A stretch of DNA of 21,185 nt. Source: Nitrososphaeraceae archaeon. GTDB taxonomy: Archaea > Thermoproteota > Nitrososphaeria > Nitrososphaerales > Nitrososphaeraceae. The translations under genes and the position numbers were made by a program. Location: assembly GCA_044870765.1 (NCBI GenBank), contig JBIOZG010000052.1, forward strand, positions 1 to 21,185. The letters are read 5' to 3'. The notes under the pieces are model-generated. The model made no database searches, was not told where the DNA came from, and saw only the letters and a program-made list of their open reading frames with translations. Shown in pieces: positions 9,733 through 20,352 of the stretch. Position 1 is the stretch's first letter, and each line of letters begins with the position of its first letter.

Positions 9733-10611
9733 TTGATGACCGAAGCTGATAAGTTCGGTGCAGTTAAGGATGCAACAGTGGCGATAGGTCTTGCCAACAA
9801 AGATACAAAAGATGTCATAAGTAGTTTTGGTACAGGTTTTTTCATAGGCGGAGAATACATTGTCAGCTCTGCACATATTTTTAGTCAATGCATTAAGTAT
9901 AATGCTCAGAATAAGGATAAGAATAAGGGTATGGAAGGAATATATTCCGCATTCAACATTACCACAAATGGAGATCAGCTTGAGCTTAACACGTATCACA
10001 TAATAAAGGCTATCAGACTACCCCCTGTTAGAGAAGTTATGGGATTTACCGGGTCAGTAGACCTAGATATAGGGATAGGAAAGCTAGATCGTCATTCAGA
10101 TAATTTCTTACATATCAAGGAACCTACCCAATTGAAACTTTACGACGAGATTGTAATATGTGGTTTTCCTAGTGGAAGAATATCGTTGGTTCTGTATAGA
10201 AATAAACATGAAGATGGAATGGGAATCCATTTACGCCCCATAATTCAATTTGGACGTATTGCGGGATTAATGCCCTATGATGACAGTAACAACCCATGGG
10301 GAATACAAACGGATATCGTTGCCATGGGAGGTTCCAGCGGCTCGCCTATTATAGATCCGAGCAGCGGAGAAGTAATAGGTATGGCTCAGCAAGTTATTGC
10401 AACAATGACTACAGTAGACAAGGAGGGAATGCCATCAAACCTATTTGAATTGACTAAAGGTCCATTGTATGGAATAGCTCCGATCGGATTAGCTTACGGC
10501 GTCACCAATCAGATATTATCGCCGCTTCCTCATATTTGTAAAGATTATTTTGAAAAAGGTCTTCCCCCCGACTTTTTATTTGATAGTACGGGACCTATAG
10601 AACTTTTCTGA
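9733..10611 (+). CDS. Trypsin-like serine protease (S1/Trypsin_2), no signal peptide
   Basis: GTGFFIGG, SSAH (His), DIGIG (Asp), GFP, and GGSSGSP (Ser) followed by GEVIGM. Confidence 0.9.
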   Translation: MMTEADKFGAVKDATVAIGLANKDTKDVISSFGTGFFIGGEYIVSSAHIFSQCIKYNAQNKDKNKGMEGIYSAFNITTNGDQLELNTYHIIKAIRLPPVREVMGFTGSVDLDIGIGKLDRHSDNFLHIKEPTQLKLYDEIVICGFPSGRISLVLYRNKHEDGMGIHLRPIIQFGRIAGLMPYDDSNNPWGIQTDIVAMGGSSGSPIIDPSSGEVIGMAQQVIATMTTVDKEGMPSNLFELTKGPLYGIAPIGLAYGVTNQILSPLPHICKDYFEKGLPPDFLFDSTGPIELF

Positions 10612-11724: not shown

Positions 11725-12666
11725 TTGACATCTTATTATCTTCTTTTTTGTATTGGCCTATCTTTACTGCTTATGATTCCTCAGTATACGTATTCAAGTT
11801 TATTTAACGTAGCAACTGTTGGTGACTGGGGATGCAATGATAATTCCAAGAATACTTTAAAAAATATTTCAAGTAAAAAACCGGAATTAATTCTTGCACT
11901 CGGAGACCTCTCGTACCAGAAAACTGCTGAATGCTGGCTTGAAATAATGTCCCCAGTAGATAACATAACTAGCATAGTCCGAGGAGACCATGACAATGAT
12001 TTTCGTACTAGTCAATATATGGAGCATTTCAACATGTCAAGTGAATTTTATTCATTTAATCATTTCAATATTCATTTTATGATAATGTCCACAGAATTAC
12101 CATATGAAATAGGATCTAAACAATATGAATTTGTCAAGTCAGATTTAGATAATACACTAACGAATTCGTCCATCAAGTGGATAATAATCGCATACCATCA
12201 ACCTGCATATATATCGCCAAATGATTGTCAAGGGTGTAGTCCAAGGGTAACTTTAAGAGAAGTGTACCATCCCTTGTTTGATAGATATAATGTTGATCTG
12301 GTATTACAAGCACATAGTCATAATTATGAAAGAAGTTATCCCATGCTATACAACAACAAGGATTCAGAGAACCCTATAATAGTCAATACAAACAAAAACA
12401 ATTACAATTACGATATTAATAATTTTCATGGAACCATCTTTGCTACCGTTGGAACCGGAGGAGCAGAACTTCATAATTTTAAACTAAAGGCTCCTTATAT
12501 TGTAACACAGCACCGTGGTTTTGGTTTCTTGAATTTAGAGCTTATAAACAATGGTACTAGACTAAATAGTACCTTCTATGATAACAATGGAACAGTATCA
12601 GACCAATTTATTATTGACAAATTAGTGAGTACACAGGCAAATTTAGCTTACAATGCTACTTCTTGA
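11725..12666 (+). CDS. Secreted calcineurin-like metallophosphoesterase (purple acid phosphatase-like)
   Basis: Signal peptide and motifs GDWG, GDLSY, GDHD, YHQP, AHSHNYER, VGTGG. Confidence 0.9.
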   Translation: MTSYYLLFCIGLSLLLMIPQYTYSSLFNVATVGDWGCNDNSKNTLKNISSKKPELILALGDLSYQKTAECWLEIMSPVDNITSIVRGDHDNDFRTSQYMEHFNMSSEFYSFNHFNIHFMIMSTELPYEIGSKQYEFVKSDLDNTLTNSSIKWIIIAYHQPAYISPNDCQGCSPRVTLREVYHPLFDRYNVDLVLQAHSHNYERSYPMLYNNKDSENPIIVNTNKNNYNYDINNFHGTIFATVGTGGAELHNFKLKAPYIVTQHRGFGFLNLELINNGTRLNSTFYDNNGTVSDQFIIDKLVSTQANLAYNATS

Positions 12667-12814
12667 GATTAGTAAATAAATACGCGCGTTACAGAAGAGG
12701 TCAAGGAAGTATGACCCGAGCTAAATTAGAATGAAAAGAGTGGAGTAATATTATATTATATAGAAGTAATATCCGATAACGAACTAGTTATTTTTATAAG
12801 GATATCGAAATTCA

Positions 12815-13078
12815 CTACTTTGGCTTTAGTCTGGTGGAAAGCTTAACGTACCTGACCCAGGATTGATCGGATAGCTCAGATATGGCTTCTTGTGAAATTG
12901 TGGTAGGGATTACTTCTGGAACATTTTTATTAAATGTTAGACCTAATTTCTGTAGATACTCTTTTTCGTCTTGGCCAAGTCCTTTTTTTACACCTACAAA
13001 GACTGGAATGAGATTCTTATCTGTTTCTTCAGACTTTAGCGCGGCAGCAAGAGCAGCGTCGACTTTATTATAGTTCAT
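12815..13078 (-). CDS. Stand-alone subtilase-prodomain-like protein (putative cognate inhibitor/chaperone)
   Basis: Aligns by eye with the N-terminal about 108 aa of the adjacent S8 protein: YNKVDAALAAAL/LEKIDPSLTVVL, VFV/SFV, VIPTTISQEAISELSDQSWVRYVKLSTRLKPK/IRTAFFPLDSLDEVSEDDRIKRIIPAQYLKMK. Only 12 nt from the S8 stop. Confidence 0.7.
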   Translation of the reverse strand: MNYNKVDAALAAALKSEETDKNLIPVFVGVKKGLGQDEKEYLQKLGLTFNKNVPEVIPTTISQEAISELSDQSWVRYVKLSTRLKPK

Positions 13079-13090
13079 TACCTGAACTTA

Positions 13091-14830
13091 TCAAACTTGA
13101 GACATATCAATCAATCCGTGACCCCACTTGGTATCAAATGTATTCTGTGGGTGTCCTGGAATTCGCGCATTGGCACGAAGAATGGACTTCACACCATTTG
13201 GGTCAAGGTTATTGTCTCGTTCCAATAAGAGAGCCACAATTCCAGTAATAAATGGTGTAGCCATACTCGTTCCTGCCATCATTCTCAGACTTTGCGATAC
13301 CATAAATCTTCTATCTAGTTCAGAATCGGCTGATAGAGATGAGCAAATATAGGCTCCTGGAGCTGCAATGTCTGGTTTCTGAATCTCATTTCGAAGAGGC
13401 CCCTCGCTACTGAAATCCGAGATGCTGTCAAGTGTGAACGCGATACTTCGCTGAACGCCATCAATATCTATCCATTTGTTTTTAGTCGTGTACGAAGCTA
13501 CGGTTACTGCTTCAGTCGCAGACCCCGGCGAACCAATTTTTACAGAGTCGCTCACGCTTGTTCCTGTAAAGAATGACTCTTGTTGATCCAAGTTATCAAA
13601 AATCCAAATATCAACTCGGCCATTGTTAATTAACTCTCCACGTAGCAATACCTTCCAAGTCGTTTCAACAGGTAACGAAGATAAATTATGCGGTTCAACA
13701 TAAACAATGAAGTTATGATCACCATTGGATGGGTCAGGAGGCGAAGTAACTATTGTTACTTTTCCATCAGGAAGATCATATTCCCTTGTGGGATCACCGC
13801 CAGTAATGACTTTCTGATAAGGGGTATTGAATCCAGTCGGAGATTTGACACTTATTTTAATTTTGTCTGTACCAGAATACCATCCGTTTAGCGCTGCCCA
13901 TTGAGGTCCTTGTTTAGGGATCATAAAACGAATACTACGAACTTGATTTTTGGCCACCACTTTCTGTGAATGAATATTATCGGTCCCCTCGTTTCCTGCT
14001 GCACAACATACTATTTTACCTGGACCAACTTCAGAGGAAATTATCTGAGATAATGGATCAGTCCCGTCATGAGGATCGAAATGCCCACCAAGACTCAGAT
14101 TAACTACGGCAGGCTTGCCGAGATCTGACGCAACTCGGAATATGTAGCGTATTCCATCAGCTATATGTGCATTTTGAAAGTCGGTTTTGACTATTAAAAA
14201 TTTTGATTTAGGAGCTACTCCTGCAAATTTAGGTTGCATTCCGCCAGCCATACCAGCAACATGCGTCCCATGTCCGTGTACATCTCTTGAGGCCGTAAGC
14301 ATATTTCCAGAAAGCTCCAACCCATAATGCCCCTCGTCGACTCCTGGTCCTGACAATCCCTGATCCCAAATCTTTAGAATTCGACCATCAAAGGAAGCAT
14401 GATTAGGATCGATGCCAGAATCAACGATTCCAATTATGACACCGTTTCCACCTAGACCTGTACTATTTACAAAGGTAGGAAGATTCACCTTTCCGGGAGC
14501 AATATCCATCTTCATTTTCAAGTATTGTGCTGGAATAATCCTTTTGATTCTGTCGTCTTCAGATACTTCATCAAGAGAATCAAGAGGGAAAAACGCGGTT
14601 CTTATCTTGCCCTTCTTTTGATTGACGATAATGTTGCGAGTAACAAGGTTATCAAATTTTGCATTACTATCACAATAAACAAACGATACTAGTCTAGGAA
14701 GCTTGGGAGAATTCTCAGTGGATGAAATTATCCCTAACGAATTCATGTGTTTTTTAAGACCATTCAATCCCTCCAGTTTAAAGTTCTTTAGTACGACTGT
14801 CAGACTAGGATCAATTTTTTCAAGCTTCAT
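13091..14830 (-). CDS. S8 subtilase, CspA/CspB-like with an inserted beta domain, no signal peptide
   Basis: Triad motifs GIVDSGID, HGHGTHVAG and GTSMATP, oxyanion AAGNEG, an insert of about 150 aa before GSPGSA..AVTV, KPDIAAPG, and C-terminal WGHG. SD-like GGAGGA upstream. Confidence 0.95.
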   Translation of the reverse strand: MKLEKIDPSLTVVLKNFKLEGLNGLKKHMNSLGIISSTENSPKLPRLVSFVYCDSNAKFDNLVTRNIIVNQKKGKIRTAFFPLDSLDEVSEDDRIKRIIPAQYLKMKMDIAPGKVNLPTFVNSTGLGGNGVIIGIVDSGIDPNHASFDGRILKIWDQGLSGPGVDEGHYGLELSGNMLTASRDVHGHGTHVAGMAGGMQPKFAGVAPKSKFLIVKTDFQNAHIADGIRYIFRVASDLGKPAVVNLSLGGHFDPHDGTDPLSQIISSEVGPGKIVCCAAGNEGTDNIHSQKVVAKNQVRSIRFMIPKQGPQWAALNGWYSGTDKIKISVKSPTGFNTPYQKVITGGDPTREYDLPDGKVTIVTSPPDPSNGDHNFIVYVEPHNLSSLPVETTWKVLLRGELINNGRVDIWIFDNLDQQESFFTGTSVSDSVKIGSPGSATEAVTVASYTTKNKWIDIDGVQRSIAFTLDSISDFSSEGPLRNEIQKPDIAAPGAYICSSLSADSELDRRFMVSQSLRMMAGTSMATPFITGIVALLLERDNNLDPNGVKSILRANARIPGHPQNTFDTKWGHGLIDMSQV

Positions 14831-14863
14831 AATTATTTTTCATCCTCCATTCTGAGCATCATT

Positions 14864-14980
14864 TTACCTAATTCCTCTTTTGCTTTTTTTATCCCTGGCC
14901 CCAGCTGGAATTGTAATTGTTCTGAATTTGACGCCATATGAAGGATCAGGGAATATATCCTCAGCTTCATTACTCAACAT
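14864..14980 (-). CDS. 38-aa peptide ORF leading the subtilase operon
   Basis: MLSNEAEDIFPDPSYGVKFRTITIPAGARDKKSKRGIR. ATG lies 22-29 nt below a TTTATAAA box, and the ORF ends 33 nt before the S8 start. Confidence 0.6.
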   Translation of the reverse strand: MLSNEAEDIFPDPSYGVKFRTITIPAGARDKKSKRGIR

Positions 14981-15001
14981 ATGACCTTAAAGTAGCCGTA
15001 A

Positions 15002-15009
15002 TTTATAAA
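15002..15009 (-). promoter_or_regulatory. Archaeal TATA box of the peptide-S8-prodomain operon
   Basis: TTTATAAA at canonical leaderless spacing from ATG 14980. Confidence 0.6.
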
Positions 15010-15210
15010 GACTATGCAGCACTTATTAGTTGATAAGTGATCCTTTGATGAGGTATGTTTATAAAAAAGACGTTTATTCTGAGTGTTTTTGAACAAGAAT
15101 ATTTGTTATTAAATATGAATCAAGCAATAATAGGCGTGAAATTCAGTTTCCAGGAGAGATATTCCTAAAGATTTCTTTCAGTGGAGTAAATACAGGATAT
15201 TTATTATTGT

Positions 15211-16251
15211 CTATTCACTTGACTTAAACATTTGAATACGGTCTATAATAAATTCACTTACGTACACATTACCAGAAGAATCGACAGCAACACCCCCTGG
15301 TCCAGAAAATTGGCCTTCTCCACTGCCTGAAGATCCCCACGTTGTAATAAATTTACCATCACTGGTAAACTTCTGAATACGGTCATTACCCTCATCAGTT
15401 ACGTACACATCGCCAGAAGAATCGACAGCAACACCCTGCGGGTTAGAAAATTGACCATCGCCACTGCCTGAAGATCCCCAAGCCCTAAGAAATGAATATT
15501 GTTGCTGTTCCGCAATTGTCGTTGGTTGGGATGGTGTTATTAGTTGGGGCGTTGTCGTAACATTTACTTTGACCTGCTGGGGTAGATACACAGAAACATA
15601 AACTGAGAATATGGCTGCAATTATAGCTCCTATAGCGACTACTAAAACTACAGTCCTTTTCGAACTGAGCCTATATTTTTGCTCCACTCTAGGTGATTTT
15701 GCATGTGGGACCACTGGTGATTCAATTTTAGGCTGGACTTCTGCCTTGGGGACTTCAGGTTTGATTTCTTCTTCCGTGGGGACCTCGGTGTTTTTTATCC
15801 TGTCTTGTTTTGATTCTTTTACCGGTTCTGCTGTTCCCTGTATTGTTGTATCTAACTTTGACTGTAGTTGAACCAAGTGCTTAATTTTACCATATATGTT
15901 TCTGGCTAGTTGATTTTCATTAGCAAATTCAATTCCTTGAAGCTTTCCTATTCCCCACTTTAACTCATTTCCTTTTATTCCACTATAAAAACATGGAATA
16001 ATTTTTTTGTTCTTGTTCTGAGCTTGTAATATCTCTTTTTCTACTTCCTTGCTCTTTAGAGCAGCAAAGGTGACTATTAAAATAAAAATATCACACGAGG
16101 CGATATTATCCTCGATAGTATTATTCCAATCCTCACCAACCTGAATATTGCTTACATCGGTGAAAACACTGTGCTCATCCTCTAATGTTTCAGAGATTTT
16201 TTCAGCAAAGTCACTTGCATCTCTTCTGGAATATGAGACAAATATTTTCAC
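15211..16251 (-). CDS. TIR domain - Pro/Glu linker - transmembrane helix - NHL repeat protein
   Basis: KIFVSYSRRD, VFTD..I..GEDW...I...I..CD.FILIV, S.EV.KE and IIPC (TIR_2). TM VVLVVAIGAIIAAIFSVYVSVYL follows KYRLSSKR. Two WGS.GSG.GQFS.P.GVAVDSSG.VYV....DRIQ.F repeats. GTG start. Confidence 0.92.
   Translation of the reverse strand: MKIFVSYSRRDASDFAEKISETLEDEHSVFTDVSNIQVGEDWNNTIEDNIASCDIFILIVTFAALKSKEVEKEILQAQNKNKKIIPCFYSGIKGNELKWGIGKLQGIEFANENQLARNIYGKIKHLVQLQSKLDTTIQGTAEPVKESKQDRIKNTEVPTEEEIKPEVPKAEVQPKIESPVVPHAKSPRVEQKYRLSSKRTVVLVVAIGAIIAAIFSVYVSVYLPQQVKVNVTTTPQLITPSQPTTIAEQQQYSFLRAWGSSGSGDGQFSNPQGVAVDSSGDVYVTDEGNDRIQKFTSDGKFITTWGSSGSGEGQFSGPGGVAVDSSGNVYVSEFIIDRIQMFKSSE
15233..15480 (-). 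repeat. Two NHL-coding direct repeats, 141-nt period
   Basis: Shared blocks TGAATACGGTC, TACGTACACAT, CCAGAAGAATCGACAGCAACACCC and CCACTGCCTGAAGATCCCCA. Confidence 0.85.
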
Positions 16252-16630: not shown

Positions 16631-18769
16631 CTATTTTGGAAAATAAATAGTTTCTGTTCCAATTGTTGCAGATTCTACTGGAAGGTAACTTGGAGAGGTA
16701 GCAATCTTTTCGGCAATTCGGAATGCTAGCGCTGAAATTGTCAATGAGGAATTAACCCCTATAGATGTTGGCACTATCCCACCATCTACTACATAAAAAT
16801 CGGGGTAAGTTTCAGTAACCGTAGCAGCATCTCCTTTGTAAACTTGGCCGAAATTATTCACTACACCATTATCTCTGTCCTTTCCCATAGAACACCCTCC
16901 AAGATTGTGAAGCACTATAGTCAAACTCCCATTAACATTTGTAGGATCCCACAGTGGCGTAGAAAAACTTTTTGAACCGCTTTTTCCCAGATACTTTGCA
17001 ATCCTTTCCATATTATTCCTCATTTTAGTAAATAATGGAGTAAGTTTGTTGGGATCGAATTCCACGTTTAGTACATTTAATGCGTTCATATCCCTATCAG
17101 GATTATTTTTCCATGAATCTTGTAACTTCACTATCCCATCGGAAGTATCTGTTCCCATTCCTGAAAGGAGTAATGTATTTGCAAGGTCTTCTTCCGAGGC
17201 TTGAATAGGAAGGTTAGTATTTCTAACGGCAACTCCTGATGGATTCTGAGTAATCATGTTTATAATTGACTGCGTAGATCCAGTTCCCACGAATGCAAGC
17301 AAACTTCTAAATGAATTTCCCTGAGATAATAGTCTTGATATACCAGAGAACATCTTAGGAATACTACTATCCTCTATTGTGTATACAAAACCGAGTCCTT
17401 CATTAAATTTAATTGCCGAAGTAACTATAGGACCTCTCGTTGCATGAATATTTGTCTTTGTAGGAGTTACCACCCCTAATAGATCTCCATTTGTGGAATA
17501 GCCCATACCTAGTCTGCTGCTGAGCTTGAGTTTTTGACCACTAGTACGTATAGTGTTTATGGACTTGAGCAAAATTTCTGTGCTTCCGATTGCTCCCGCT
17601 GCGAGAACCAATCTCTTGCAGTCCAATATTTTTTTTCTACCCCCGTCAACGAACCTAAATAATTTTACATTTAACTTGTACGAGTTAGGACCGGTATTCC
17701 AATTGAAGTCCATCTGTTTCCAGTCTCTTCCAGCGAAATCTGTATAGTATAGTCTATAGCGATAGCTAGACGAAGTCAGTGGTTCTATATCATAAACTTC
17801 GCTTAAAGCTCGTACCTCAAAATGTTTCCTTTTTGCTGGATGGTTCAAGTAATCAAATAATTTCTTGTTATTAAGATGACGGGCCAGAGGGATACATCCA
17901 AGGACACACCTACCTTGTCTCTCGCACACATTTGGTTCTGCAAAATACTTTCTTACAAGTACGGCCAATTTTTCTTGAGTCTTCAAATTGTTCTTAATAT
18001 TATCTAATATCGTCGAGTAAGAATAATTACCAGCTGAATCAAGTAAATAAGATGCCTTCTTAAATACTGTAACCTCATCTTCTCTAAATGGTATGTCAGT
18101 TATTGATAAGTCTACTGCAAAAATATCTTCAGCAGAAGTATTTTGATCAGGATCTAGAGGATCGAAGGTATTCTCATTAGTAACGACCCCTGGCGGTGAT
18201 TCTTTTTTGATTTTGTCAGCGGCGTCTTGAAAAGCCTTTGCCTTGGGTAACTTAAAGCTACTAATTCCTGCGGTAGTCGTGATCTTATTTATGCCAATGA
18301 AACCCTTTGCCATAGCAAAATAAGATGATAGGTTAGTGTGATTGATTCCGAGGCTGAGTTCAGTATCCCATCTATCAATGACAGAGTCATGAGGCTTTTC
18401 AGTAACATTTGCATAAACTAAAGAACCACCGCCTACGCCACTAGCAGCCAAAGTATGAACGTTCTTAGAAATCCTATAATCATATAGACCTCTTCTATCA
18501 ATGATGCGCAAGGTGTTTAGAAATTCGGATAATCCGTCGATATTATCAGGATACGCCCAGGTCCTGTAAGGAATATCGTTTAGCTCTAAATATTCTCTTA
18601 ATCCGGGCTTATGCTGAGTTGGGTCCACAGTTTTTTGTTCGTTGAAGCCTCGACTTTTTGGTACCTCATGGCTAATCCACCATTGCCCACGTTCAAGCAG
18701 GATTACTTTTCTTTTGTCAGGATCCGGAGCTAGCTTATCTTCCTCATGAAGTTGATTTACTAACGACAA
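16631..18769 (-). CDS. GMC oxidoreductase body (downstream fragment of the frameshifted gene)
   Basis: 712-aa ORF with GMC motifs. The frame is open from 18799, but as annotated it lacks the GxGxxG. Confidence 0.75.
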   Translation of the reverse strand: MSLVNQLHEEDKLAPDPDKRKVILLERGQWWISHEVPKSRGFNEQKTVDPTQHKPGLREYLELNDIPYRTWAYPDNIDGLSEFLNTLRIIDRRGLYDYRISKNVHTLAASGVGGGSLVYANVTEKPHDSVIDRWDTELSLGINHTNLSSYFAMAKGFIGINKITTTAGISSFKLPKAKAFQDAADKIKKESPPGVVTNENTFDPLDPDQNTSAEDIFAVDLSITDIPFREDEVTVFKKASYLLDSAGNYSYSTILDNIKNNLKTQEKLAVLVRKYFAEPNVCERQGRCVLGCIPLARHLNNKKLFDYLNHPAKRKHFEVRALSEVYDIEPLTSSSYRYRLYYTDFAGRDWKQMDFNWNTGPNSYKLNVKLFRFVDGGRKKILDCKRLVLAAGAIGSTEILLKSINTIRTSGQKLKLSSRLGMGYSTNGDLLGVVTPTKTNIHATRGPIVTSAIKFNEGLGFVYTIEDSSIPKMFSGISRLLSQGNSFRSLLAFVGTGSTQSIINMITQNPSGVAVRNTNLPIQASEEDLANTLLLSGMGTDTSDGIVKLQDSWKNNPDRDMNALNVLNVEFDPNKLTPLFTKMRNNMERIAKYLGKSGSKSFSTPLWDPTNVNGSLTIVLHNLGGCSMGKDRDNGVVNNFGQVYKGDAATVTETYPDFYVVDGGIVPTSIGVNSSLTISALAFRIAEKIATSPSYLPVESATIGTETIYFPK

Positions 18770-19722: not shown

Positions 19723-20352
19723 TTGTTCCTTAGTTTAATTTTACCTAGAATCGTAATTAGAACATTCTTAGTGACCTTAGTATCTCTATGCGTAGTTATA
19801 GCAGCTTGTTCTGACTCTTCTCTGGGCTTTAAACCTTCTAATCCTGATACTAATTCACCACAGCCTTCAATTTCCGACTCAACACCTTCAACTTCGCCAT
19901 CTACTCCCAATTTGAGTCTCAAATTGAAATTATATGAAAATGACGACTTGGGAATCAGTCTCAAATACCCGTCGGATTGGACGATTAAGAAATTAAAGGA
20001 AGGTGTCCAATTTGTAAATCAAAAAGATGCTAATTACGTGGAATTACGTGACCACGGTACGGCTACCAAAGACCTTAAAGAGTCTGTATATGATCATATA
20101 TCCTCTAGAAATGATTCTAGAACTGATTTTAAAATTCAAAATATTTCAGAAACTAAAATAGCAGGCGTTCCCTCATATGAGGTCATTTACACATTCTCAG
20201 GTGGCGGGGATCAACAAATCGAGAAAGTTTTGCGATATTATTATATAGTAAATAATAAGGAATATACCATAGCTTACATATCGAATATTGATAGTTATCA
20301 ATCCTACTTGCCAGCTGCTAAGTCCATAATAAATTCTATTGATTTCAAATAA
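19723..20352 (+). CDS. PsbP-related (Mog1p/PsbP fold) exported protein, possible lipoprotein
   Basis: YENDDLGISLKYPSDW, TKIAGVPSY...Y, Y.I.Y......Y..Y.P....IINS. Lipobox-like VIAA|C followed by an S/P/T linker. Start uncertain. Confidence 0.85.
   Translation: MFLSLILPRIVIRTFLVTLVSLCVVIAACSDSSLGFKPSNPDTNSPQPSISDSTPSTSPSTPNLSLKLKLYENDDLGISLKYPSDWTIKKLKEGVQFVNQKDANYVELRDHGTATKDLKESVYDHISSRNDSRTDFKIQNISETKIAGVPSYEVIYTFSGGGDQQIEKVLRYYYIVNNKEYTIAYISNIDSYQSYLPAAKSIINSIDFK

Follow-up and report, generated by a model that had tools for sequence, protein, structure and literature searches.

A Csp-like cytoplasmic subtilase and its conserved partner, a free-standing paralogue of the protease N-terminal domain and putative trans-acting inhibitor

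It is textbook knowledge that the prodomains of subtilases serve as intramolecular chaperones and, for a time, as inhibitors. Why, then, should the gene for a self-inhibited protease be accompanied by a second inhibitor gene, encoding a detached copy of the prodomain? This question is raised by a locus on contig JBIOZG010000052.1 of a Nitrososphaeraceae archaeon, within the 21,185-nt stretch of DNA analysed here (the window). A first-pass annotation had described the locus as a three-gene module composed of a leader peptide, an intracellular subtilase and a free-standing second prodomain. All three minus-strand open reading frames (ORFs; 87, 579 and 38 aa) exist where it had placed them, and the 12-nt gap that it reported between the protease stop and the start of the 87-aa ORF is confirmed. 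The features discussed below are the following:

12815–13078, minus strand: 87-aa gene, free-standing paralogue of the protease N-terminal (pro)domain; ends in LKPK, aligned to protease K107
13079–13090, minus strand: 12-nt spacer, from the protease stop to the small-gene start
13091–14830, minus strand: S8 protease gene, 579 aa; ORF with a Pfam Peptidase_S8 match
13091–14509, minus strand: predicted mature protease, residues 108–579 plus stop; subtilase domain with D137, H187, N280 and S522
13595–13969, minus strand: beta-rich insert, about residues 288–412; interrupts the subtilase domain at the position of the Csp-type 'jelly-roll'
14510–14830, minus strand: protease N-terminal domain, residues 1–107; presumed cis prodomain, with the junction YLKMK then MD
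14831–14980, minus strand: 5' leader region, containing the 38-aa ORF and an overlapping 45-aa ORF
14864–14980, minus strand: 38-aa ORF; open frame, coding status unsupported by comparison
14833–14970, minus strand: 45-aa ORF, overlapping the 38-aa ORF in a different frame
15002–15009, minus strand: TTTATAAA, candidate for an archaeal TATA box; the ATG of the 38-aa ORF follows 21 nt downstream
15058–15065: TTTATAAA, second identical copy, in the same intergenic region as the first

The 579-aa protein matches Pfam PF00082 (Peptidase_S8) with 145.7 bits (cut-off 21.8; E = 2.4e-42). Its catalytic residues D137, H187 and S522 occur in that order, together with the oxyanion residue N280, and are invariant in 32 aligned homologues, while residues 1–40 are free of any hydrophobic signal-like stretch (maximum Kyte–Doolittle mean over ten residues, 1.06); the intact S8 triad and the absence of a signal peptide noted at first pass are thereby borne out. 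The N-terminal domain is present in all 32 homologues and has the same helix/strand order as the model of the 87-aa protein. In the AF2 model of the protease, the linker at residues 103–109 has a pLDDT below 50, and an all-beta segment (strands E288–E412) lies inside the subtilase domain. A hidden Markov model (HMM) alignment with CspB (4i0w_B) runs as one continuous stretch over profile positions 116–537 (E = 8e-37), and the top ten Foldseek matches are all CspA, CspB or CspC chains (E = 1e-32 to 1e-28, TM 0.63–0.81), the next family appearing only at E = 1e-15. The clostridial Csp subtilases (CspB, CspA and CspC; PDB 4i0w, 9pr8, 9pr9 and 6mw4) share the domain order of the window protease and are its best matches in both sequence and structure, but they are 18–24% identical to it in structural alignments. 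The protease also misses the NCBIfam cut-offs for CspBA (117.3 versus 1250 bits) and CspC (58.6 versus 675 bits), and Pfam and NCBIfam hold no family specific to it. It is Csp-like in architecture and stands outside the curated Csp families. Judged by its sequence, it is a cytoplasmic subtilase that begins with a prodomain-like domain and continues with a subtilase domain whose catalytic residues are intact and into which the beta-rich segment is inserted; cleavage would be expected at the junction between the N-terminal domain and the mature part.

The small ORF shows the constancy of a gene: its 32 near relatives are all 87 aa long (62–100% identical), its wider family comprises 221 representative clusters at E ≤ 1e-3, mostly stand-alone proteins of 85–100 aa, and dN/dS is 0–0.44 (0.10–0.22 for the protease). 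At first pass it had been aligned end to end with the protease's own prodomain, a claim that stands at the level of profiles but not in the pairwise comparison. BLASTP finds no significant similarity between the 87-aa protein and the protease (E = 0.8, 26% over 50 residues), whereas hhalign of 82 small-family sequences against 28 protease N-terminal domains returns a probability of 98.6% and E = 1.2e-15. This alignment is end to end (family columns 1–88 versus 1–106) and places K87 against K107, just before the invariant M108–D109, with about 21 extra residues in the protease domain. The N-terminal ~106 residues of protease ORFs from 80 bacterial loci are likewise hit by an HMM of the small family (80 long ORFs at E ≤ 1, with the 58 best-scoring domain matches inspected), with full-sequence E values of 2e-11 to 3e-7 among the matches listed. 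Because the pairwise comparison is not significant, the homology is one seen by profiles only; on these comparisons, we regard the 87-aa ORF as a real gene and as a paralogue of the N-terminal domain of the protease.

The predicted structure of the 87-aa protein (AF2, pLDDT 75.5) points the same way. When it was searched against 48,161 chains, the top ten matches were all subtilase prodomains or the I9 inhibitor POIA1 (Z 4.6–6.5), including 3afg_B (Z 6.5, r.m.s.d. 3.9, 84 aligned) and POIA1 itself (1v5i_B; Z 5.5, r.m.s.d. 3.5, 66 aligned). These Z scores are middling, at most 6.9 across searches, and Foldseek likewise placed prodomains on top at E values of 0.035 and above. At the level of sequence families, the small protein of the window matches no Pfam family at E ≤ 1, only three of the 82 family members touch Inhibitor_I9 (PF05922; best E = 0.019) and two touch CspB_prodomain (PF18425; best E = 0.0048), and none of the 28 protease N-terminal domains matches any prodomain family. 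In the ESM Atlas, the protein lies near a cluster of 87-aa bacterial proteins, 32% of which carry PF18425 (feature score 0.93). The model suggests a fold of the subtilase-prodomain type. Its best structural matches being S8 prodomains and POIA1, at modest Z, the proposal of an intracellular Csp-like subtilase followed by a free-standing prodomain copy gains support from the fold search as well as from profile homology and the Csp matches.

Modelled together, the small protein and the protease reach an ipSAE of 0.96 in three of three runs, against 0.11 for the best of three controls, a score that may owe more to likeness with solved prodomain–subtilase complexes, of which there are examples, than to properties of this pair; 58 of 80 solved complexes attain the mark by which it was judged, as do 2 of 110 mismatched pairs. 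The partner has a pLDDT of at least 87, and the runs share at least 95% of their contacts. On the protease side, the modelled interface comprises residues 137–138, 187–188, 246–249, 279–280 and 520–522; on the other side, tail residues 79–87 lie in the active-site cleft, while residues 342–375 of the insert touch the N-terminal helix of the small protein. In this predicted pose, the C-terminal tail of the small protein enters the catalytic cleft, which is what one would expect of an inhibitor or prodomain acting in trans and is in keeping with the role first proposed for it.

The last four junction-equivalent residues are often alike in the two partners (LRLL/LRLL in L003 and L004, LKMK/LKPK in the window). 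However, the tail of the small protein is not always a ready-made product mimic, since many cyanobacterial small proteins extend 1–14 residues beyond the junction-equivalent position and, in Nostocales, the last junction-equivalent residue is R in the protease and V or L in the small protein. Co-evolution of the tails was considered and is not claimed, because the P1 residues of the partners disagree in Nostocales and the loci are related to one another. It also counts against an inhibitory role that the protease keeps a prodomain of its own, which would occupy the same site.

The partnership of the two genes is seen most clearly in bacteria. Of 80 bacterial protease loci, 57 have a homologue of the small gene on the same strand, downstream of the protease, and no other neighbour is so widely shared. 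Where the gap between the two is measurable (56 linked loci), it does not exceed 400 nt in 42 and is greater in the other 14. Five of five cyanobacterial genomes without a linked copy have the small gene elsewhere, the two genes being unlinked in G041–G045 and G447, and among 121 genomes of one cyanobacterial order the same 6 hold both genes and the other 115 hold neither. The small protein can therefore be regarded, on this pattern of linkage and co-occurrence, as a conserved partner of the protease, as had been anticipated. The protease family is strongly conserved, the archaeal protein being 54–60% identical to those of bacteria of several phyla, but within its own phylum it was found in 1 of 401 genomes, this one. 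Single-protein searches of 40 relatives returned neither the protease (0/40, E ≤ 1e-10) nor the small protein (0/40); in the scan of genome contigs, a single protease query gave nothing and an alignment query was needed. The pair also occurs in L087, a low-GC relative (61% identical). The earlier remark that the arrangement is undescribed in archaea is fair for the literature searched, but the gene pair appears from these surveys to be mainly bacterial, widespread there and rare in archaea, rather than an archaeal peculiarity.

In the window, the two genes are probably carried on the same transcript. Contigs from RNA libraries cross the junction between protease and small gene in runs X1, X3 and X4 (two studies) and extend upstream of the protease ATG to 14955 (X1), 14895 (X2) and 14877 (X3), although such contigs cannot prove a single transcript, and libraries of this type can hold DNA. 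The four RNA runs give no cover at 12500–12790 or 15022–15215, gaps that are not readable as transcript ends. The spacer keeps its length of 12 nt in L083–L086, four of four close relatives with DNA covering it. Co-transcription is not obligatory, because more than 400 nt separate the genes in the 14 loci mentioned above and they are far apart in several genomes.

Further upstream, the single TATA box of the first-pass annotation is only partly sustained: TTTATAAA is present at 15002–15009, but it is not alone, the second copy lying at 15058–15065, and its count in the window equals chance (2 observed versus 2.1 expected). Both copies are kept in close relatives, in which the ~85 nt adjoining the protease start are also well conserved at the DNA level. 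The copy at 15002–15009 may serve as a promoter element, and we treat it as a candidate, at a count that chance would give. Rfam yielded no match at E ≤ 1 across 12600–15300, and a scan for sigma-70 promoters and terminators, with models unsuited to an archaeon, stayed at chance level.

Taken together, the domain homology, the prodomain-type model, the conservation and co-occurrence of the pair and the confident modelled interface favor a module of two genes, not three, in which the protease is paired with a trans-acting prodomain-like inhibitor; this is the most likely explanation, and one that we hold with somewhat better than even confidence. Autoprocessing and its site, the inhibition and the trigger of release are parts of this account that we infer. 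The protease would fold with its own cis domain and then cleave itself at or near K107|M108. Once the cis domain was gone or degraded, the free 87-aa protein would take the same surface: its beta-sheet would pack on the two surface helices, while the N-terminal helix rested on the insert and the LKPK tail lay product-like in the S4–S1 pockets beside D137, H187 and S522. The mature enzyme would stay inactive until the small protein was removed.

The same homology, and a predicted binding site identical to that of the cis domain, would also be expected of a helper rather than an inhibitor: a trans-acting foldase, or an exchange factor, itself degraded after driving out the cis prodomain, which would speed activation. 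Subtilase prodomains are folding chaperones as well as inhibitors (PMC3567191 and PMC6993865), and those cyanobacterial small proteins that extend past the junction equivalent could themselves be cut. The modelled tail in the catalytic cleft is, however, an inhibitory pose, and a second foldase looks redundant because the protease has a full N-terminal domain of its own, conserved in the 32 homologues; we consider a helper role unlikely. Somewhat harder to sustain is a toxin–antitoxin-like or anti-phage module with the protease as harmful effector and the small protein as labile antidote. The layout of protease followed by small partner would fit, as would the patchy archaeal occurrence and the TIR-domain protein encoded directly upstream in the window, and PADLOC returns weak matches to its 'subtilase' and IetS models. 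Yet the 'subtilase' match (E = 1.3e-24) and the weak IetS matches cover the generic S8 core only, the small protein has none, the anti-phage IteS model of NCBIfam stays at 21.9 bits where its cut-off is 900, and PADLOC and NCBIfam hold no specific family for either protein. The TIR neighbor is not among the gene clusters common to the bacterial loci, and the two genes co-occur even in genomes in which they are unlinked. The distance between the genes in several genomes and the generic nature of the PADLOC matches argue against a toxin–antitoxin or defense cassette, and inheritance looks vertical because 13 cyanobacterial proteases form a single group in a quick tree; we rate this reading as distinctly improbable. 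Almost nothing is left to commend the view that the small ORF is a duplicated fragment without function or a product of faulty annotation: the window copy does lack a Pfam family and its pairwise similarity to the protease is weak, but the 221 representative clusters, the constant length in 32 near relatives, dN/dS below 1, the exact co-occurrence with the protease and the confident AF2 model all speak against it, and the conservation data, as sequence evidence, already contradict it.

The third component of the original proposal, a 38-aa leaderless peptide acting as activator or substrate, fares poorly as well. Its ATG lies 21 nt downstream of the TATA-like motif, as would be expected if this archaeal mRNA were leaderless, and the RNA-library contigs cover its region up to 14955. 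In five close relatives, the ORF is identical (L083), carries one replacement (L088), is frameshifted (L084), has lost its stop (L085), or has acquired a 10-residue insertion (net 30 nt) and many replacements (L086). The frame remains open in L086 despite the insertion, but the ORF has diverged heavily there although the protease is 96% identical. The substitutions are few, too few for dN/dS, and show no bias to silent changes; the ORF has no Pfam match, and the overlapping 45-aa ORF shows that open frames arise easily in this region. Among 78 bacterial loci, there is no ORF similar to it and no widely shared small upstream ORF (largest cluster, 15 loci). The neighborhood survey suggested at first pass thus upholds the 87-aa gene and not the 38-aa ORF; on these sequence comparisons, the 'leader peptide' is not supported as a member of the module, and a functional three-gene switch seems very unlikely.

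How does the two-gene reading, a protease with a detached prodomain-like inhibitor, compare with known systems? Csp systems regulate via paralogous full-length (pseudo)proteases, and we know of none that does so via a detached prodomain gene. Csp-type subtilases are characterised by a prodomain that is autoprocessed yet retained and by a role in spore germination, through SleC activation. In contrast to these clostridial proteins, the proteases considered here come from cyanobacteria, from other bacteria outside the clostridia and from an archaeon of the ammonia-oxidiser type. In the portion of PMC3567191 that concerns CspB, the prodomain is described as staying bound, with its C-terminal residues blocking the active site, in trans too. 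Stand-alone propeptide-like inhibitors named in the corresponding part of PMC6993865 are POIA1, yeast PBI2, Arabidopsis SPI-1, Toxoplasma TgMIC5 and Plasmodium SUB1-ProM, the gene for the last adjoining its subtilase genes; as presented there, the described cases of such inhibitors are confined to a few eukaryotic proteases. The 87-aa protein, as modelled, is like the MEROPS I9-type inhibitors in fold, these being small free prodomain-fold proteins that inhibit subtilases. However, the listed examples are all eukaryotic and mostly reside in secretory compartments, whereas the 87-aa protein is prokaryotic and cytoplasmic, is clearly paralogous to a domain of its own partner, has a Csp-type partner, falls short of Pfam I9 and is a putative inhibitor. 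Bacterial proteins of ~87 aa automatically named 'Csp protease B prodomain domain-containing protein' also resemble it (ESM Atlas); the name is an automatic label only, and the window protein and most of its family fall short of PF18425, which 32% of the cluster carry. Given the PF18425-bearing cluster, automatic annotation therefore already picks up stand-alone proteins that resemble the CspB prodomain, and the literature searched contained no functional description of them or of the protease family.

If the model is right, the module would be a kind of system familiar from eukaryotes in a new, prokaryotic form, with a putative inhibitor role. A broader version, offered tentatively and on balance doubtful, is that of a widespread and, to our knowledge, undescribed two-component intracellular protease system, in bacteria and in at least one soil Nitrososphaeraceae-type lineage, in which a detached prodomain restrains a Csp-type subtilase and its regulated removal (by degradation, a signal or cleavage of the tail) switches on cytoplasmic proteolysis. 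Such a system, antitoxin-like in its logic, would match in prokaryotes the stand-alone propeptide inhibitors of eukaryotes, and the gene pair offers a simple two-protein system in which to study how dangerous intracellular proteases are silenced and released.

The origin of the archaeal copy was also considered. In the quick, unrooted tree, the clade of six to which the window belongs is set off from the bacteria by a long branch. The GC content of the two genes (0.42 and 0.39) is higher than that of the window (0.36), which would favor recent horizontal transfer, but their GC3 (0.33 and 0.34) is like that of the neighboring genes (0.25–0.33), and with an unrooted tree recent transfer was not adopted. 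Acquisition from bacteria would explain the phyletic pattern more economically, and is favored on that ground only.

The two-gene core of the locus is solid and the first-pass annotation was largely right: the three open reading frames (ORFs) lie at the positions it claimed, with 12 nt between the protease stop and the start of the 87-aa gene. The features concerned are as follows.

12815–13078, minus strand, 87-aa ORF
13091–14830, minus strand, S8 protease ORF, 579 aa
14833–14970, minus strand, 45-aa ORF in another frame, overlapping the 38-aa ORF
14864–14980, minus strand, 38-aa ORF
15002–15009, TATA-like motif TTTATAAA, 21 nt 5' of the 38-aa ORF ATG

Pfam recognises neither the 87-aa nor the 38-aa ORF at E ≤ 1. 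The 579-aa protein matches Peptidase_S8 (E = 2.4e-42), and the intact triad reported for it is borne out: D137, H187 and S522, together with N280, are present and invariant across 32 homologues. Its N-terminus contains no hydrophobic signal-like stretch, in line with the earlier statement that a signal peptide is absent, so the plain reading is that the protease is probably cytoplasmic. Homologues (about 575–620 aa, 54–60% identity) occur in cyanobacteria, KSB1, Acetothermia, Chloroflexota, Planctomycetota, Thermodesulfobacteriota and Bacteroidota. In the sequence search, it is clostridial structures that align unbroken across the entire catalytic part: CspB (4i0w_B; E = 8e-37, protease profile positions 116–537) and the CspA and CspC germination proteins. 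The AF2 model of the full-length protein (pLDDT 83.8) starts with an alpha/beta domain, followed by a linker of low confidence (103–109), and has an all-beta segment at about 288–412 that interrupts the subtilase domain; ten Csp chains head its Foldseek matches (E = 1e-32 to 1e-28; next family 1e-15), which sustains the description of a Csp-like subtilase with an insert. Since the cut-offs of the NCBIfam Csp models are missed widely (117 bits versus 1250; 58.6 versus 675), the protease has Csp architecture, yet lies outside the curated Csp families.

The 87-aa ORF is a real gene. All 32 near relatives of its product (62–100% identity) are 87 aa long, the 12-nt spacer is retained in four of four close relatives, and dN/dS against four close relatives is 0–0.44 for the small gene and 0.10–0.22 for the protease. 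Searched with a profile, 1.84 billion representatives yielded 221 clusters at E ≤ 1e-3, and almost all of the best 150 are stand-alone proteins of 85–100 aa. Sequence profiles show the small protein to be paralogous to the N-terminal domain that the protease itself carries. The end-to-end alignment claimed between the two is not significant in pairwise BLASTP (E = 0.8), but it holds at profile level: hhalign, comparing 82 small-family sequences with 28 protease N-domains, gave a probability of 98.6% (E = 1.2e-15), pairing columns 1–88 with N-domain positions 1–106, with about 21 extra residues on the protease side. K87 is thereby aligned to K107, immediately ahead of the invariant M108-D109 at the presumed prodomain/mature junction. 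The HMM of the small family likewise picks up residues 1 to ~106 of the protease ORFs from 80 bacterial loci. Pfam I9 is reached by 3 and CspB_prodomain by 2 of the 82 family members, all below threshold, and the 28 protease N-domains gave no prodomain-family match at all.

In its AF2 model (pLDDT 75.5), the small protein alternates between helices and strands, three of each, beginning with a helix, and the protease N-domain shows the same succession. A structure search without Foldseek, over 48,161 representative chains, ranked only subtilase prodomains and the stand-alone inhibitor POIA1 among its ten best matches. The Z values are middling (ProN-Tk-SP, Z 6.5, r.m.s.d. 3.9, 84 aligned; POIA1, Z 5.5; CspB prodomain, Z 3.7); taken together with the profile homology, they lead us to accept the predicted prodomain fold that had been proposed.

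The pair is conserved, mostly in bacteria. Of the 80 bacterial loci, which were fetched using the protease alignment, 57 carry a small-protein homologue downstream in the same orientation; the gap has a median of 135 nt and is ≤400 nt in 42 of 56 loci measured. No other neighbour is so widely common, the next real gene cluster being found in 30 of the 80. Two of the 23 loci without a linked small gene offer <500 nt of downstream DNA, and five of five cyanobacterial genomes lacking a linked copy have the gene at another place. Within one cyanobacterial order (121 genomes), both genes occur in the same 6 and neither in 115, an exact match, but one among kin genomes that are not independent; in 2 of these 6 the genes sit far apart. 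In one cyanobacterial genome (G556:C38:221243-223497), the protease match is in two pieces (profile positions 1–245 and 242–578) beside an intact small gene, a state that a frameshift, an interruption or a sequencing error might explain.

The presumed mature protease (residues 108–579) and the small protein were modelled as a complex in three runs, with three controls. The interface score ipSAE was 0.96 in the three runs and 0.11 for the best control, with partner pLDDT ≥87 and at least 95% of contacts agreeing between runs; as a yardstick, 58 of 80 solved complexes attain that mark, as do 2 of 110 mismatched pairs. The predicted interface takes in residues 137–138, 187–188, 246–249, 279–280 and 520–522 of the protease and the tail (residues 79–87) of the small protein, whose N-terminal helix touches insert residues 342–375, a modelled pose that is that of a retained prodomain. 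The model supports binding as a prediction, and its score may mirror likeness to solved complexes, because such prodomain complexes have already been solved. PMC3567191 describes C-terminal prodomain residues of CspB obstructing the active site, and doing so for a prodomain provided in trans as well. A dedicated trans-acting, prodomain-like inhibitor is the most likely role, favored with some reserve; the competing roles are a helper or activator and a toxin–antitoxin-like pair. The regulated 'switch' of the first-pass annotation is not supported. The small proteins of loci L020, L033, L034, L045, L060 and L077 and of other Nostocales run ~10 C-terminal residues past the junction-aligned position; the protease might cut these proteins as well.

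Contigs from soil RNA libraries of two studies cross from the protease into the small gene (X1, 12824–13958; X3, 13036–13552; X4, 13047–13195), and further contigs extend 5' of the protease ATG to 14955 (X1), 14895 (X2) and 14877 (X3). The pattern is consistent with one transcription unit whose leader is 125 nt or longer, although such contigs are no proof of a single transcript and the libraries may contain DNA.

The leader peptide proposed as a third component is not supported. Among five close relatives, the 38-aa ORF is identical in L083 and has one replacement in L088, is frameshifted by a 1-nt deletion in L084, has lost its stop codon in L085, and carries a 10-residue insertion and many replacements in L086, whose protease is 96% identical; nothing like it lies within the 84 nt that L087 offers. 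Substitutions are few, without bias to silent changes. The neighbourhood survey upheld the 87-aa gene but found no similar upstream ORF in 78 bacterial loci, where no upstream ORF family extends to more than 15, and the 38-aa ORF was rejected as a conserved part of the module. The claimed TATA box is present as a motif, but an identical copy lies at 15058–15065 in the same intergenic region and the count in the window (2) is at chance level (2.1 expected); as TTTATAAA reads the same on both strands, each copy could serve genes in either direction. Leaderless transcripts follow a spacing rule from TATA to start, and because the 38-aa ATG is placed where one could begin, its translation is possible. 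The 45-aa ORF stops (14833–14835) only 2 nt ahead of the protease ATG (14830), and the L084 frameshift fuses the 38-aa frame to its tail; if any upstream ORF is translated, its translation could conceivably be linked to that of the protease by stop–start coupling.

In the window's own phylum, the protease was found at E ≤ 1e-60 in 1 of 401 genomes, this one alone; none of 40 relatives has it at E ≤ 1e-10. Close relatives are present in soil metagenomes, and the low-GC relative L087 (61% identical) has the pair. In a quick unrooted tree, the window's clade of six stands on a long branch separate from bacterial sequences, and GC3 of both genes is similar to that of neighbouring genes. A bacterial origin of the archaeal pair is the economical reading, and any transfer is not recent. 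Two metagenome contigs (L089:1868-2127 and L090:5001-5260) hold a sole fragment matching protease residues 24–111 (81% identical), with no intact ORF across it, which gives the appearance of a degraded copy of the locus; the next ORF resembles, by eye, a portion of the TIR-NHL protein encoded in the window.

Fungi, plants and apicomplexans are known to have stand-alone propeptide-like subtilase inhibitors, and the gene for Plasmodium SUB1-ProM adjoins its subtilase genes (PMC6993865), much as the 87-aa gene lies beside its protease. Searches of open-access papers and preprints found no description of a prokaryotic stand-alone counterpart paired with a Csp-type protease; some 87-aa bacterial proteins are already auto-labelled CspB-prodomain-containing. 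We rate the protease with its detached prodomain as a new prokaryotic variant of this theme.

Directly upstream (15211–16251, minus strand) lies the gene for the 346-aa TIR-NHL protein, which combines a TIR_2 domain (E = 1.5e-19) at its N-terminus with a hydrophobic stretch and NHL repeats. TIR proteins of this kind often have links to immunity; this one is not among the gene clusters common to the bacterial loci. The window also encodes a Trypsin_2 peptidase (9733–10611, plus strand), a GMC oxidoreductase (16631–18769, minus strand) and a PsbP-like protein (19723–20352, plus strand), the last a curiosity in an archaeal genome.
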